Shown here: positions 8,272-13,000 of the stretch, in pieces
How positions within the stretch are numbered: the stretch's first letter is position 1
Layout: each line of letters begins with the position of its first letter
Origin: a virus
Lineage: Duplodnaviria; Heunggongvirae; Uroviricota; Caudoviricetes
Reading direction: 5' to 3' (one strand)
Length of the DNA stretch: 44,740 nt
IMG/VR virus record: IMGVR_UViG_3300009169_000014
Span: 1-44,740 of that record
Notes under the pieces: model-generated
Told to the model about the DNA's origin: nothing
Database searches by the model: none
What the model saw: the letters and a program-made list of their open reading frames with translations, nothing else
Made by a program: the position numbers and the translations under genes

Positions 8272-8300
8272 AGTCACCGTAGTGGTGACTTCTTCTTGTT
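8272..8300 (+). terminator. intrinsic terminator, stem agtcacc/ggtgact with GTAGT loop + TCTTCTTGTT
   Basis: 7-bp stem; loop GTAGT shared with hairpins at 8455, 8640, 12970. Confidence 0.55.
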
Positions 8301-8336
8301 GGCCCTAGGCCAAATCTGCCCGAGCCGGAGATGTCG

Positions 8337-8355
8337 TCCGCCGGCGCCGGGCGGA
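8337..8355 (+). other. hairpin tccgcc-ggcgccg-ggcgga
   Basis: 6-bp GC stem in non-coding region. Confidence 0.4.
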
Positions 8356-8391
8356 GACCACGAATCAAAGTAATCGCTGTTGTCGAGCACA

Positions 8392-8408
8392 GGCCGCCAC
8401 GGGCGGCT
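8392..8408 (+). other. hairpin ggccgcc-acg-ggcggc
   Basis: 6-7 bp GC stem, 3-nt loop. Confidence 0.4.
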
Positions 8409-8454
8409 CACCGCACCAAGTAGACACGCCAATCAGCAAACGGCAGTTGCCAGC

Positions 8455-8471
8455 GTCTCCGTAGCGGAGAC
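8455..8471 (+). other. hairpin gtctcc-GTAGC-ggagac (GTAGY loop family)
   Basis: 6-bp stem; loop and closing CC/GG identical to hairpins at 8272, 8640, 12970 with compensatory stem changes. Confidence 0.45.
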
Positions 8472-8491
8472 ATTAGCTCGCTGGACTTCGT

Positions 8492-8514
8492 CCAATTTGA
8501 TCAGATCAAATTGG
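8492..8514 (+). promoter_or_regulatory. 23-bp perfect AT-rich palindrome ccaatttgatc-a-gatcaaattgg; candidate protein-binding operator/origin element
   Basis: perfect 11-bp inverted repeat around a central A; AT-rich in a ~63% GC genome; contains two GATC. Confidence 0.45.
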
Positions 8515-8639
8515 TGTCCGAACTCCAAGCCCGAGTTTCGAGTGCCCTGGATGTTTCCAGGCTGCAGCCCGAGCTCACCTGGTAGGATCCACCGAACCAA
8601 GTGATTCAAGCGTGAACTAGCTTCGATTTTTAGATCGAC

Positions 8640-8670
8640 GCCTCCGTAGTGGAGGCAGTTGTTTTTACTG
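8640..8670 (+). terminator. intrinsic terminator, stem gcctcc/ggaggc with GTAGT loop + AGTTGTTTTTACT
   Basis: 6-bp stem, GTAGT loop, T-run. Confidence 0.55.
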
Positions 8671-8704
8671 GCCGAGCCAGTGCCGAAGGGGTTTTCACCG
8701 ACGG

Positions 8705-8721
8705 ATGTCCGGCCCGGACAT
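8705..8721 (+). other. 17-bp perfect palindrome atgtccgg-c-ccggacat
   Basis: 8-bp inverted repeat 36 nt upstream of 8757 gene. Confidence 0.4.
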
Positions 8722-10418: not shown

Positions 10419-10621
10419 TGAGAGTCTCTGAGAAGAGGAAGCGCGTCTTCGCGGCCATCAAGGCGAAATACGAAGACGCGGATCTGGATGACCAGGTTCA
10501 CGAAATCATGACGCTCAGGGCTTCGGAGATCAACAACGAGGGCATCGACGCTCAGCTGGAGTTCCTGGCGACGGAGTGCGGGCTCAAGTGGCTCGAGGAC
10601 TACTACCTGAAGGAGCGCTGA
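10418..10621 (+). CDS. hypothetical protein (67 aa)
   Basis: ATG overlapping upstream stop (TGACTGATG); GC3 bias. Confidence 0.5.
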   Translation: MRVSEKRKRVFAAIKAKYEDADLDDQVHEIMTLRASEINNEGIDAQLEFLATECGLKWLEDYYLKER

Positions 10622-10911
10622 TGCCCTGCGGAGGAATCTATACGGTCAAGCCGTTGACCGAAAAGAAGGAGTGGTACGACGACTGCGCGCAATGCGGGGA
10701 GTTCACCCGTAACGGGAAGACGCCGGATCACTACGTAGAAGAGTGGGACGGCCTCATGCTCCACGGAGAGTGCGTCTTGAAGTGGCTCGTGGAAACGGAG
10801 GAAGGCCAATGCGTAAATCTGCACCTGCACGAAGTCCAAGTCGACGGAAAGGTGGTGTACGCCGAGGGGCAGGAAAGGCCCGTCGCCCCGCCACCCGTCG
10901 GTTCAACGTAG
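10621..10911 (+). CDS. zinc-binding protein (96 aa; CAQCG..HGECVL variant of recurring module)
   Basis: AAGGAGCG RBS, ATGA overlap with upstream stop. Confidence 0.55.
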   Translation: MPCGGIYTVKPLTEKKEWYDDCAQCGEFTRNGKTPDHYVEEWDGLMLHGECVLKWLVETEEGQCVNLHLHEVQVDGKVVYAEGQERPVAPPPVGST

Positions 10912-11081
10912 AGTTCCGCGGCAAGGCATGGGTGCAAGGCATCCTGACCGTCGACGCCCCGAATGAGCAGGAAGCGCGTGTCAAAGCGTTCGCCGATTAC
11001 CGGGAAACCGGCATCGTCTGGAAGTACGTCGAAGAAGACGAAGAGTTCGGCGTACGCGTCGTCGACGTGGATCCGGTATGA
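10809..11081 (+). CDS. hypothetical protein; codon bias supports only the distal part (~10880-11081, ends ..GVRVVDVDPV)
   Basis: GGAGGAAGG RBS before ATG 10809 but low GC3 until ~10880; possible -1 frame continuation of 10621 gene. Confidence 0.3.
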   Translation: MRKSAPARSPSRRKGGVRRGAGKARRPATRRFNVEFRGKAWVQGILTVDAPNEQEARVKAFADYRETGIVWKYVEEDEEFGVRVVDVDPV

Positions 11082-11671
11082 CCGCCGTACACAGCTTCCT
11101 CGTACTGGCGAGTAGCAACAACGAACACTTCAACGCTGACTGCGACTTCGCCGTTATCACGCTGACCCCGGATCTTCTGAAAAAGTTGATTCCGCTTCAG
11201 AAGGCTCACGCCGACATGACGAAGCGGCTGGAGAGCTTCTCATCGTTTGAGCTCCTGGACTGGGGCGCCTCGTTCATCTCTCGGAGAACCGCCGAAGAGT
11301 TCTTAGGCGAAGCCGCGTTCGAACAGGCAGACGACCAGGTCTCAAATGGCGATCCGTTTCTTCTCCCGCGCCGGGAAGGACATGAATTGAACATTGAAGC
11401 TCACGCCGACTACCTGGTGGTCACAGGGCGTGGCCTCTGGTGGCGTGCGCACCCTAAACACTCAGACATCACGGTCGAGAGTAACCAGATCGACTGGGTC
11501 TGGTTTACTCAGTGCATTCACTGCGGCCACCCGAAGGACGCCCACGTCAGAGGGAAGTGCCTGTTCTCCTCCACCAACTACAAGGCGTACCATGCAAAGA
11601 CTGAAAGCGCGGTTGAACATCGAAGAGTACGGAAAAAGCAGCCTCGGAAACGGAACCTGCCTGCGGTGTAA
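11078..11671 (+). CDS. hypothetical protein with C-terminal CIHCGHPKDAHVRGKCLF zinc-knuckle module (197 aa)
   Basis: ATGA overlap with upstream stop; GC3 high to ~11595 then low. Confidence 0.55.
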   Translation: MTAVHSFLVLASSNNEHFNADCDFAVITLTPDLLKKLIPLQKAHADMTKRLESFSSFELLDWGASFISRRTAEEFLGEAAFEQADDQVSNGDPFLLPRREGHELNIEAHADYLVVTGRGLWWRAHPKHSDITVESNQIDWVWFTQCIHCGHPKDAHVRGKCLFSSTNYKAYHAKTESAVEHRRVRKKQPRKRNLPAV

Positions 11672-11966
11672 GAAGCCGATCATCGCTCACGTGGGAGAGG
11701 ACTGTATGTTCGACTTCACGCAGCTTGACGCCGCTCCTTTGGAGCGCATCTTGGCGGCGCTGTTTCAAGGGAAGCTCCCGAAGGATGGAAAGTTGACCTT
11801 GGAGATCATCGGAGGAGCGTCCGTGTCCTACTTGGTCAAAGCTTCGTCGTACAAATACTCCCTCACCAACAATCCGCCGTACTACGAACTGGGTAGACTC
11901 GGCGCGACCTACGGCGCTCCGTCGGGCGTTGAAGTAGAGCTCGAACTCGTGGGGGTGGGCGGATGA
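11592..11966 (+). CDS. protein with N-terminal CLRCKKPIIAHVGEDCMF zinc-knuckle module (124 aa)
   Basis: ATG 11592 in frame of ORF 11394..11966; GC3 becomes high exactly from here; 80-nt out-of-frame overlap with 11078 gene. Confidence 0.5.
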   Translation: MQRLKARLNIEEYGKSSLGNGTCLRCKKPIIAHVGEDCMFDFTQLDAAPLERILAALFQGKLPKDGKLTLEIIGGASVSYLVKASSYKYSLTNNPPYYELGRLGATYGAPSGVEVELELVGVGG

Positions 11967-12298
11967 AGCTCCACGGGCACAAGTTCAGAGCAGATCTCAA
12001 GTACACGTTCTCCCGGTACCACCTCGAAGGCTGTACGCAGTGCGGCAAAAAAAAGGAGGAGCATGCCCACGGCAAATGCCTCTTCGAATCGACGGTGTTC
12101 AAGCCCCACGAGCTCCTGGAGTTCTTCGAGCTCCTGATGCGCAAGGGTGGTGTTCTCACCATCAAAGTAGGAACGAAGTCCCTTACCCAAAAGATCAATG
12201 GCGCCGCCATCGACCAAGGAGTGAACATGGTGATGGGGGACATCCGAGCAGAGGGTGAAGCTTTTCTAGGAGACACGGCCGATGCCCCGAAACGTTAG
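11963..12298 (+). CDS. protein with N-terminal CTQCGKKKEEHAHGKCLF zinc-knuckle module (111 aa)
   Basis: ATGA overlap with upstream stop; GC3 bias. Confidence 0.55.
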   Translation: MKLHGHKFRADLKYTFSRYHLEGCTQCGKKKEEHAHGKCLFESTVFKPHELLEFFELLMRKGGVLTIKVGTKSLTQKINGAAIDQGVNMVMGDIRAEGEAFLGDTADAPKR

Positions 12299-12518
12299 GA
12301 ACTTCTGGCTCAACATCAGCGTGGATGGGCGGAAAGCGAAGGTCGGTGCCGGCCCCCGAAGCCGTTCCGGGGGATTCCGCTGCCAGGTTCTCCAGCGGGC
12401 CGACGGAGCGATTCACCACGACGACATCACCGTGGAAGGCATCAACCGAGATGGGCTGCTCGAGCTCAAAGTCTGGGTCGGCGGAGACGTCATCTTCAAA
12501 CGAACAACCAAGGTGTGA
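12282..12518 (+). CDS. hypothetical protein (78 aa)
   Basis: ORF with moderate GC3; 17-nt overlap with upstream gene; weak RBS. Confidence 0.4.
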   Translation: MPRNVRNFWLNISVDGRKAKVGAGPRSRSGGFRCQVLQRADGAIHHDDITVEGINRDGLLELKVWVGGDVIFKRTTKV

Positions 12519-12520
12519 GC

Positions 12521-12805
12521 ATGGAACTAGCTAAAGCCGGCAAGGTGTCGAAGCTCGACGCGGGGAGCAAAAGATCATGGAAACTGCACCAGACAGTAAA
12601 CGAGCTCCAGACGTGGAGCGCGTACCTGCAGCAAAGCGCGGAGAGGTTCCTCGAAGAATTTACCGCGTACAACTCCCACTCGACCTTTGTTACCACGCCG
12701 GAGAAGAAGGCGTATCAGGCGGTGATGGACGCGCTCCTTCTCCTGAAGAAGGAAAGCAGCCTGATGAAAGGCCGGTCCCGGAGGCTCCACGGCCCGAGGC
12801 TCTAG
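12521..12805 (+). CDS. hypothetical protein (94 aa; GTG alt start 12515)
   Basis: high GC3 throughout; stop overlaps previous gene end. Confidence 0.5.
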   Translation: MELAKAGKVSKLDAGSKRSWKLHQTVNELQTWSAYLQQSAERFLEEFTAYNSHSTFVTTPEKKAYQAVMDALLLLKKESSLMKGRSRRLHGPRL

Positions 12806-12945
12806 AACACCTCCGAGACCAGTTCTCAGAGGTAGAGGCTGTTACGGGGAAGCGCTTCCCGGCGTTTGAGAAGTGGATCGAAACCGCTGACGTAGAGGCG
12901 CAGCGGGACTACTTCCGTCTGATGCGGATCATGCTGAAGCTGTAA
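12577..12945 (+). CDS. ORF whose last ~46 codons (12806-12945) show coding bias but lack a start; possible -1 frameshifted C-terminal extension of 12521 gene
   Basis: GC3 low from 12577 to ~12800, high afterwards; no ATG/GTG/TTG near 12806. Confidence 0.25.
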   Translation: METAPDSKRAPDVERVPAAKRGEVPRRIYRVQLPLDLCYHAGEEGVSGGDGRAPSPEEGKQPDERPVPEAPRPEALEHLRDQFSEVEAVTGKRFPAFEKWIETADVEAQRDYFRLMRIMLKL

Positions 12946-12969
12946 CCCTCAGCTTCCTGATGAAGGACG

Positions 12970-13000
12970 GTCACCGTAGCGGTGACAGCAGTCTCTTTGC
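12970..13000 (+). terminator. weak terminator / GTAGC-loop hairpin gtcacc-GTAGC-ggtgac + CTCTTTGCTT
   Basis: near-identical to hairpin at 8272 (tcacc GTAGY ggtga). Confidence 0.4.

Follow-up and report, generated by a model that had tools for sequence, protein, structure and literature searches.

The window analysed here is a stretch of 44,740 nucleotides from a tailed phage, and it carries four short hairpins with a common apex, all of them perfect, all on the + strand and all located in non-coding DNA between + strand genes. Three form array 1: hp1 at 8272-8290 (AGTCACC-GTAGT-GGTGACT), hp2 at 8455-8471 (GTCTCC-GTAGC-GGAGAC) and hp3 at 8640-8656 (GCCTCC-GTAGT-GGAGGC). The fourth, hp4 (GTCACC-GTAGC-GGTGAC), stands at 12970-12986. 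Letters and coordinates are exactly those of the original prediction. Array 1 is directly preceded by a small basic gene of 75 aa (8031-8258, +, probable true start at 8031) and directly followed by a DUF3846 / phrog_3777 gene (8757-9062, +). The hairpin hp1 starts 14 nt past the upstream stop codon and hp3 lies 100 nt 5' of the DUF3846 gene start, while hp4 begins 25 nt downstream of the stop of gene 12577-12945 and is separated by 90 nt from the ATG at 13077. Spacing of the hairpins is 183-202 nt. Their flanks are not conserved; the only linear motif conserved beside the hairpin is a C linker of 1 nt. The frequency of the pattern had been proposed as a check against shuffled sequence: CCGTAGYGG occurs four times where 0.58 are expected and 1 of 100 shuffles reached four, so the count alone is modestly significant. 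Chance is nevertheless excluded, because the hairpins are perfect, intergenic and on the same strand, the sense strand is elsewhere depleted of GTAGY, and relatives keep them in synteny with compensatory stems.

More than ten related phage contigs carry the hairpins at equivalent positions, and each genome has about 8-9 of them at only three loci. The loop GTAG is invariant in 36 of 37 distinct copies, though the flanking DNA is only 59-83% identical; the fifth base may be A, and one orthologue reads GTATT. The expectation that loop and closing pairs would both be conserved holds for GTAG and the closing C-G pair. The second closing pair is not fixed in relatives, where GC-GTAGT-GC and CT-GTAGC-AG occur. 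Stem pairs 1 and 3 are, like the closing C-G, fixed or nearly so, and the remaining positions change by compensatory or G·U substitution. Compensatory variation of the stems, also predicted, is clearly present: six of the seven stem pairs covary, and among the 37 distinct copies 45 double-change cells were counted against 15 in shuffles, with none of 500 shuffles at the observed value. Syntenic stems are 96-100% paired across ten genomes. In the syntenic alignment of relatives, the hp1 stem is 95.7% paired with three covarying pairs and that of hp3 is 100% paired with two; the stem of hp2 is invariant in ten genomes. The sole non-Watson-Crick stem pairs are G·U on the + strand. Since G·U pairing is valid on the sense strand only and stem changes are compensatory, the selected object is RNA. 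No ORF is conserved across the array in the relatives compared. The GUAG(U/C) hairpins are thus sense-strand RNA elements under purifying selection. Covariation, syntenic pairing and sense-only G·U uphold the proposal that an RNA structure is selected here and that its loop is constrained and presumably recognised.

What the original prediction did not describe is a larger multi-hairpin module around every GUAG(U/C) hairpin. A trio of hairpins, A, B and C, forms the constant 5' part of the module, and the GUAG(U/C) hairpin is the middle one, B. Modules are folded RNAs of 95-200 nt, most of them closed by a covarying long-range helix, P1, and they lie between co-directional genes either alone (hp4) or in tandem (hp1-hp3 here, four to five in the second array of relatives). 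Module D1 (8250-8378, +) contains hp1. Its P1 joins AGCGATTA at 8250-8257 with TAATCGCT at 8371-8378, and the 5' strand takes in the stop codon of the upstream gene. This helix is 98.6% paired in relatives, with a compensatory GCGAATA/TATTCGC in one of them (L287) and an outer pair that may be A-U, C-G or U-A. Module D2 (8425-8614, +), with hp2 as hairpin B, is closed by CACGC-C-AATCA (8425-8435) and TGATT-CAA-GCGTG (8602-8614); this helix is conserved and the changes seen are G·U only. Module D3 (8610-8739, +), built around hp3, is closed by GCGTGAACTA (8610-8619) with TAGTCCACGC (8730-8739) and ends just 5' of the Shine-Dalgarno sequence of gene 8757. Its closing helix is 97.6% paired, with a compensatory GTGATTA/TAATCAC in another relative (L292). 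Folding z-scores are -3.9, -4.0 and -4.2 for D1, D2 and D3, respectively. A covariance model built from the second array only matched D3 at 35 bits (E 2e-7) and the hp4 module (12948-13044, +) at 21 bits; no supported closing helix was found for the latter.

The remaining hairpins of the trio were located as well. Hairpin A of D3 (8623-8638, +, TCGAT-TTTTAG-ATCGA) lies 1 nt upstream of hp3, and its equivalents are at 8441-8453 for hp2 and 12953-12965 for hp4 (both +). Hairpin C of D1 (8299-8313, +) reads TTGGCC-CTA-GGCCAA and has equivalents at 8482-8494 in D2 and 8668-8680 in D3 (both +); all three helices covary and are 90-100% paired. D2 contains in addition a hairpin formed by a perfect palindrome of 23 nt (CCAATTTGATCAGATCAAATTGG, 8492-8514, +), near-invariant in ten genomes with a single symmetric compensatory change. 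For ten second-array modules, RNAalifold predicted the P1 helix and all three hairpins, A, B and C; compensatory change affects 11 of the 23 pairs. Modules of that array have constant 5' and 3' parts around a variable centre and are separated by linkers of 7-14 nt. The folded non-coding RNA modules that the four hairpins mark form a family not described before, located between early genes of an uncultured group of ~190-kb phages.

We compared these elements with families already known. Rfam covariance models returned only tRNAs at the gathering threshold and nothing meaningful in the arrays at E up to 10, and neither a host repeat nor a CRISPR array nor a conserved ORF explains the elements. 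A CRISPR repeat unit is 28-37 nt long with conserved handles, has spacers of about 30-40 nt and matches a host repeat. We rejected this identity, together with that of an RNA anti-CRISPR unit: the spacing is 183-202 nt, flanks are unconserved, and a scan for GTCTCCGTAGYGGAGAC, done with one stem variant in one genome per species, gave 66 scattered single matches and no arrays. In REP/RAYT systems GTAG stands 5' of an imperfect palindrome present in many copies on the host chromosome; here GTAG is the loop, and the same scan gave single scattered matches. A retron msr-msd was rejected because no reverse transcriptase match occurs among the flanking ORFs, although P1-like closure is present. An N4-type hairpin promoter was discarded as well, since the wobble fits only the non-template strand and the apex, if read as C-GTA-G, does not stay in register with the stem.

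The transcriptional context of array 1 is conserved too. An extended -10 promoter-like box (TGGTATACA, 8013-8021, +) lies directly 3' of an ordinary terminator (7975-7996), and together they make a conserved terminator-promoter cassette about 250 nt 5' of hp1. The box would drive an operon of gene 8031-8258, array 1 and downstream genes. A promoter of the TGGTATACA type is also present about 1.3 kb 5' of array 2. T-rich tracts had been noted after three of the hairpins. They are conserved after hp1 (7-8 T in 10 nt, 10/10 genomes) and hp3 (5-8 T in 10 nt, 9/9 genomes) only. At 15 of the 17 hairpin sites compared, namely hp2, hp4 and 13 copies of array 2, the U-tract is absent. The layout of an intrinsic terminator, a stable GC-rich hairpin with a U-rich tract beginning within 1-2 nt, is thus conserved at these two only. 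The idea of terminators with a recognised loop fits hp1 and hp3: every relative keeps their U-rich tails, and the conserved early-type promoter is upstream of both. As a general description it is not supported, given the copies with no U-tract, the covarying helices that span hp1 and hp3 and the place of every hairpin within a larger module, so that the hairpin is no terminator standing by itself. Because these helices covary, the read-through RNA itself is under selection. A terminator with a free loop and nothing selected downstream was rejected, since the GUAG loop is invariant, unlike the varying loop of terminator 7975-7996, and since these helices covary.

We tentatively suggest, by analogy with nut/boxB sites, that recognition of the RNA hairpin gates whether transcription of early operons continues beyond their first gene(s). 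The hairpins are probably a docking site for a factor controlling downstream read-through. Docking at hairpin B would be sequence-specific; candidate recognition features are the G-U-A-G of the loop, two stem pairs (G-C at position 1 and C-G at position 3) and the C-G pair that closes the loop. The partner of hairpin B might be a protein, of phage or host origin, or else RNA polymerase itself. The job would be conditional termination or antitermination between the promoter-proximal gene and the downstream block, with a logic like that of lambda nut/boxB or HK022 put. We regard this as the most likely reading because both arrays follow the first gene(s) from an early-type promoter and the U-tracts of hp1 and hp3 are conserved; the presence of only three loci per genome also suits regulatory sites more than generic terminators. 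Several observations count against gated read-through: the U-tract is absent from most sites, modules are tandemly repeated and the loop is not GNRA-like. Further, we saw no strong terminator downstream that would need to be overcome, and the neighbouring genes offer no candidate binding protein, having no Pfam, PHROG or PDB match suggestive of RNA binding or antitermination. Tandem sets of 3-5 complete closed modules are, to our knowledge, neither needed for nor known from nut or put sites.

It is possible, if rather doubtful, that the modules are instead self-contained structured non-coding RNAs, arranged like beads on a string, in which each P1-closed domain makes up a stable unit, RNA or RNP, that processing within the short linkers may set free, and control of transcription is incidental. 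Hairpin B would then be a protein handle, as in a sponge, scaffold or guide-like RNA, and a variable core of about 100 nt would lie between two constant parts, the A-B-C scaffold and an AACAAAG junction. The closed domains, whose covarying P1 helices have fixed relative positions, the 7-14 nt linkers, constant ends around a variable centre, 3-5 tandem copies, the strong conservation of the extra hairpin at 8492-8514, z-scores near -4 and the lack of a U-tract in most copies all speak for such units. The unsupported closing helix of the hp4 module does not, nor does the restriction of terminator-like 3' ends to hp1 and hp3; no module has its own promoter, and no partner protein or enzyme was identified among the genes searched. 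The last module moreover abuts the ribosome-binding site of the next gene and so looks cis-regulatory. If the explanation is nevertheless correct, the independently folding, P1-closed domains in arrays of 3-5 could represent a new class of modular phage RNA, forming an RNP with some protein and having a function that no phage RNA described so far has; decoy or sponge for a host factor and guide-like particle are candidate functions.

Two other RNA-level explanations are unlikely. Hairpins could be cleavage sites by which an endoribonuclease, either a phage Cas6/Csy4-like enzyme or a host RNase, punctuates polycistronic early transcripts. They are intercistronic and on the sense strand, and their stem of 6-7 bp with a pentaloop starting with GUA resembles the hairpin of type I-F CRISPR repeats (CUGCC-GUAUA-GGCAG). 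The unconserved flanks and the wide spacing do not fit, no nuclease gene was recognised nearby, and the hairpin lies inside the closed modules rather than at their borders. We find it just as improbable that these are ordinary intrinsic terminators, whose loops are alike only through shared ancestry or gene conversion. In its favour, hp1 and hp4 come after stop codons, U-rich tails follow hp1 and hp3, and an A/G-rich tract upstream of hp1 is able to pair with the tail of hp1. The loops, however, are invariant in more than ten genomes and at three loci while stems and flanks diverge, most GUAG copies have no U-tract, and the helices spanning hp1 and hp3 covary. Ordinary terminators of the same genomes also have much stronger stems (-14 to -32 kcal/mol, versus -4 to -15 for GUAG hairpins), and the loop of the one compared, 7975-7996, drifts between relatives, unlike that of the GUAG hairpin.

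Elements acting at the level of DNA are very improbable, whether as N4-type hairpin promoters that supercoiled DNA extrudes, as hairpins of an origin or primase, or as the palindromic operator of a dimeric DNA-binding protein. Although these are short perfect inverted repeats and N4-type promoters are hairpins too, the G·T wobble is confined to the sense strand and the template strand would have A·C mismatches. In N4 it is the template strand that is recognised, and a sheared G:A pair closes the loop. Variable arm positions are always complementary, which is not required of an operator, and helices covarying 120-180 nt apart make sense only for RNA. Least credible of all is a host-repeat mimic or a known RNA class (CRISPR decoy or RNA anti-CRISPR, REP/RAYT, retron-like msr-msd, Y RNA), where the superficial likeness to CRISPR repeat hairpins, the conserved GTAG of REP elements, the order of P1, conserved G and stem-loops that recalls the retron a1/a2 layout and the TROVE (Ro60-like) protein encoded by the distant relative Mx1 are set against scattered single matches of GTCTCCGTAGYGGAGAC, a GTAG in the loop and not 5' of the stem, the lack of any Rfam match up to E = 10, the absence of reverse transcriptase and TROVE genes from both the vicinity of the arrays and the related DNA examined, and the lack of such hairpins in Mx1.

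Long non-coding stretches of large uncultured phages are usually ignored. Here, one such stretch of 500 nt is built of repeated RNA structures that covary and share one invariant hairpin. This provides an experimental handle, a 17-nt bait for fishing out the partner protein, and, for a phage lineage in which hardly any genes are annotated, a defined test of regulated read-through. Phage biology would gain a new RNA class if the modules turn out to be self-contained RNPs and not nut-like sites.

Among systems already described, the promoters of N4 virion RNA polymerase are hairpins with a stem of 5-7 bp and a 3-nt loop with conserved bases, recognised on the template strand, and their loop is closed by a sheared G:A pair (PMC4496689). 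They share with our elements a short hairpin in which loop and some stem bases are conserved and other positions covary (PMC4496689). The differences are that the sense strand is selected here, with the evidence favouring RNA, and that no sheared G:A triloop is in register with the stem. A virion RNA polymerase gene is also absent from the window, where a giant polymerase gene can be dismissed because the largest ORF has 839 aa.

CsrB/RsmZ-type RNAs and Cas6-recognised repeats likewise present one small hairpin with a fixed loop repeatedly per transcript; the motif here is a different one, lacking GGA, conserved structure occupies the roughly 190 nt from one hairpin to the next, and neither repeat handles nor a cognate protein were found. 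Intrinsic (Rho-independent) terminators resemble hp1 and hp3 in the GC-rich hairpin with a U-tract after genes. They differ in that sequence is constrained here in the loop and in three stem pairs, a U-tract is missing from most copies, the ordinary terminators of the phage have the stronger stems, and the read-through RNA is structurally conserved.

The lambda nut site, whose boxB is bound by N, shares the small stem, a pentaloop starting with G, near-identity of the loop between sites of one phage and the low number of loci per genome. Just as nutR follows cro, one copy here comes directly behind the small gene that opens an early operon. BoxB has a 5-bp stem with a GNRA-like pentaloop (G...A). 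Our hairpins were not assigned to it, having stems of 6-7 bp and the loop GUAG(U/C/A) with no conserved final A. As to boxA, no linear flank motif but the 1-nt C linker is conserved, and no arginine-rich protein of the N family was matched in Pfam or PHROGs, where such small proteins are easily missed. Copies here are also tandem, placed within closed multi-hairpin modules, and two have their own U-tract. HK022 put is a factor-independent processive antiterminator of two stem-loops separated by about 1 nt. It occurs once per operon, immediately downstream of the promoter, with longer bulged stems, whereas the modules described here are repeated and 0.25-1.3 kb from the promoter. Their hairpins A and B are nevertheless adjacent, about 1 nt apart, and would act in cis within early transcripts as in put, a likeness of layout.

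The original prediction described four hairpins with conserved loops as a selected RNA structure, and their coordinates and sequences proved correct: hp1 (8272-8290), hp2 (8455-8471), hp3 (8640-8656) and hp4 (12970-12986). In an exhaustive list of perfect stem-loops of the window, GTAGT and GTAGC are the sole 5-nt loops common to four hairpins, and all four lie on the + strand between + strand genes. In the proposed check of motif frequency, CCGTAGYGG is seen 4 times against 0.58 expected, but one of 100 shuffles also reached 4, so that by itself this frequency is only suggestive as evidence against chance. 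GTAGY alone is present at twice its expectation (157 against 79). This excess is a codon-usage effect (TAC and CTA codons, avoidance of TAG in frame) and carries no signal; because it falls almost wholly on the antisense strand of genes, sense-strand GTAGY in hairpin loops stand out even more.

The window is a portion of a large uncultured phage, most closely related to two contigs in IMG/VR, one of 190 kb and one of 188 kb. This ~190-kb pair comprises IMGVR_UViG_3300037493_005727 and IMGVR_UViG_3300036766_000644. The hairpins are found in synteny in both, and a metagenome scan added eight further related contigs. Among 37 distinct sequences gathered for this element (hairpin B hereafter), the GTAG loop is present in 36, the exception being an hp3 orthologue with GTATT; position 5 of the loop holds T or C, and A in one copy. 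C-G closes the loop in 36 of the 37 copies, stem pair 3 is invariably C-G, and at stem pair 1 there are 31 copies with G-C and 6 with A-U. Other stem positions vary with compensation (GTCACC, GTCGCC, GCCGCC, GTCTCC, GCCTCC, GACCGC, GTCAGC; further GTCGGC, GCCTCT, ATCACC, ACCCCC and GTCCCC). Double changes affect six of seven stem pairs and amount to 45 cells, where shuffles give 15, none of 500 shuffles reaching the observed value; in slid controls, pairing falls to about 40%. Since many of the 37 copies were chosen by a stem requirement, the alignment of the syntenic array from 10 genomes serves as the unbiased test; there the paired fraction is 95.7% for hp1 and 100% for both hp2 and hp3. 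Non-Watson-Crick pairs are exclusively G·U when read on the + strand (GCCGCC/GGTGGC, GCCTTC/GGAGGC, ATCATC/GGTGAT) and would be A·C on the opposite one. As relatives share no ORF across the array either, the selected object is a sense-strand RNA hairpin, as had been supposed.

Hairpin B is the middle element of a larger module. In almost all copies a short hairpin A (typically CCGG-TACCTAC-CCGG, covarying to TCGG/CCGA) stands before it, the two being separated usually by one nucleotide, mostly C. Hairpin C, its apex often GC-CTA-GC, follows after a linker of 8-20 nt. Outside the window, the relatives carry a second and larger array (array 2) of 4-5 such modules spaced by 185-202 nt, with a DnaQ-like exonuclease gene on one side and small zinc-finger genes on the other (1300-2250 on the - strand of contig L010, 3400-4300 of L013, 2990-4000 of L014). 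When RNAalifold was given ten array-2 modules and no prior, it predicted hairpins A, B and C together with a helix closing the module, P1, in which 4 of 7 pairs are compensatory; in the same ten modules, an invariant AACAAAG directly precedes the 3' strand of P1. The sequence of P1 differs among paralogous modules, for example AAGATCTT/AAGATCTT, CTTTCCT/AGGAAAG and GAACTCTT/AAGAGTTC (the last with CGTAAATTCTT/AAGAATTTACG in an orthologue), while complementarity and relative position are always kept. In the last array-2 module, P1 overlaps the spacer between Shine-Dalgarno sequence and start codon (AAGGAG-TCACCAC-GTG) and could occlude translation initiation.

The same architecture recurs in array 1, whose modules D1, D2 and D3 hold hp1, hp2 and hp3, respectively. 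The closing helix of D1 (8250-8257 with 8371-8378) is 98.6% paired; in the related sequence L287, GCGAATA/TATTCGC takes the place of GCGATTA/TAATCGC, and the outer pair varies between A-U, C-G and U-A. That of D3 (8610-8619 with 8730-8739) is 97.6% paired and reads GTGATTA/TAATCAC in L292, another related sequence, and that of D2 is conserved with G·U changes only. All three fold as closed multibranch domains (z-scores -3.9, -4.0 and -4.2). A covariance model made solely from the 5' halves of array-2 modules scores D3 at 35 bits (E about 2e-7), aligning its hairpins A, B and C, and the hp4 region at 21 bits; nothing else in the window is a convincing match. For hp4, a closing helix between GCTTCCTG at 12952 and CAGGAAGC at 13039 was rejected, as neither of the relatives L001 and L223 keeps it; what fits there is a local hairpin A. 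The most conserved part of array 1 is a 23-nt perfect palindrome at 8492-8514 (CCAATTTGATCAGATCAAATTGG), which contains GATC twice. It hardly varies among ten related genomes: the one change, a symmetric replacement of C-G by T-A, is seen in two lineages.

These folded sense-strand modules form a clade-specific family, with hairpin B as its hallmark and the loop and three stem pairs of this hairpin constrained in sequence. Scans with three stem variants place the hairpins at three loci only in the 190-kb genomes, which contain about 8-9 copies each. Among cultured phages, Myxococcus phage Mx1 is the nearest, judged by one protein (38% identity); in its whole genome GTAGY hairpins are not enriched and the family is absent. 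Megablast of 7 kb against a phage collection gave no match, nor did Rfam. One genome per prokaryotic species yielded 66 scattered, chance-like single matches and no arrays, CRISPR-like spacing or host repeat. The pattern CCGTAGYGG-N168-198-CCGTAGYGG occurs at at least 119 loci in viral contigs, and among the matches listed two real hairpins were present in known relatives only. Motif matches in L007, L009 and L015 are located in coding regions of unrelated phages and were discarded as chance. We found no description of this hairpin motif in the literature.

Genes of the window run on the + strand in 1-14932 and on the - strand in the remainder; they include a tRNA cluster, a T4 gp5-like protein and hardly anything else annotatable. 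Pfam, PHROGs and PDB sequence searches with neighbouring proteins revealed no function except DUF3846 and metallophosphoesterase. Region 1-8030 contains repeated cassettes in which a strong terminator (494-516, 5272-5302, 6409-6450, 7975-7996) precedes a stretch rich in T and then a TGGTATnnn-type extended -10 box (923, 6458, 8013). In two cases the box is a mere 0-10 nt 5' of the annotated ATG, implying that leaders are very short or absent. The last cassette, terminator 7975-7996 with TGGTATACA at 8013-8021, is kept in relatives and lies directly 5' of a gene for a 75-aa basic protein (8031-8258). Just 14 nt past its stop codon hp1 begins, and hp2 and hp3 follow at spacings of 183 and 185 nt in a 498-nt non-coding stretch reaching to the DUF3846 gene (8757). 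The solitary hp4 is found 4.3 kb beyond array 1 in the same gene block.

Several other features of the window deserve mention. Positions 1-130 are homopolymer-rich (G, C and A runs, one of ~16 C) and resemble a genome terminus or a contig end of low quality more than normal sequence. Four tRNA-like genes occupy 6528-6831. Those for Thr and Gln are + strand genes; of the two - strand genes, one (6679-6752) has an abnormal 2-nt anticodon according to ARAGORN; the adjoining - strand ORF 6894-7187 is 54% identical to Mx1 peptidyl-tRNA hydrolase. The mechanically called ORF 9047-10195 (382 aa) opens with ~80 Ser/Arg-rich residues overlapping the end of the DUF3846 gene and probably starts near 9283 (MGLSNEERMTKF...); its product ends with KPKRRRR. 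ORF 14254-14664 encodes a strongly Lys/Ala/Pro-enriched protein of 136 aa and net charge +22, similar in character to histone H1 or nucleoid proteins; it matches no family.

We infer that hairpin B is recognised by a trans-acting factor, and both arrays appear to come after the first gene or genes expressed from an early-type promoter. Our favoured proposal is that the modules would control read-through into downstream, delayed-early-like genes. The array position, the U-tract on two copies, the restriction to three loci per genome and the putative recognition site all point in this direction. The main rival is that P1-closed, tandemly repeated modules represent RNA or RNP units complete in themselves; a simple nut-like role does not account for the variable cores of the modules or for their conserved extra hairpins.

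Less survives of the original idea of terminators with a protein-recognised loop. The T-rich tails it mentioned are present at hp1 and hp3 in every relative, but hp2, hp4 and all 13 array-2 copies are devoid of them. Stems of hairpin B fold with -4 to -15 kcal/mol, compared to -14 to -32 kcal/mol for the four ordinary terminators of the window. Loops of the latter are unrelated, and that of 7975-7996 differs among relatives, whereas GTAGY loops do not. Moreover, the covarying P1 helices of D1 and D3 span hp1 and hp3, which means that transcripts extending past these hairpins have a function. If hp1 and hp3 terminate transcription at all, they do so only partially or conditionally.

The remaining readings were rejected: a hammerhead ribozyme (CTGATGA 5' of hp4 is not conserved in L001), loop-loop kissing of B with C (UAG with CUA) or with A (GUAG with CUAC), whose partner loops vary in array 1, small ORFs or translation continuing past a stop codon into the TAG of the loop (neither conserved), long-range base-pairing between the tail of hp1 and the Shine-Dalgarno sequence of gene 8757 (explained by purine/pyrimidine bias, with inconsistent compensation), and DNA-level, CRISPR-mimic, REP, retron and Y-RNA interpretations, each of which fails a defining feature.

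Control of read-through by hairpin B modules would follow a logic similar to that of nut/boxB and put, although the modules described here belong to neither family.
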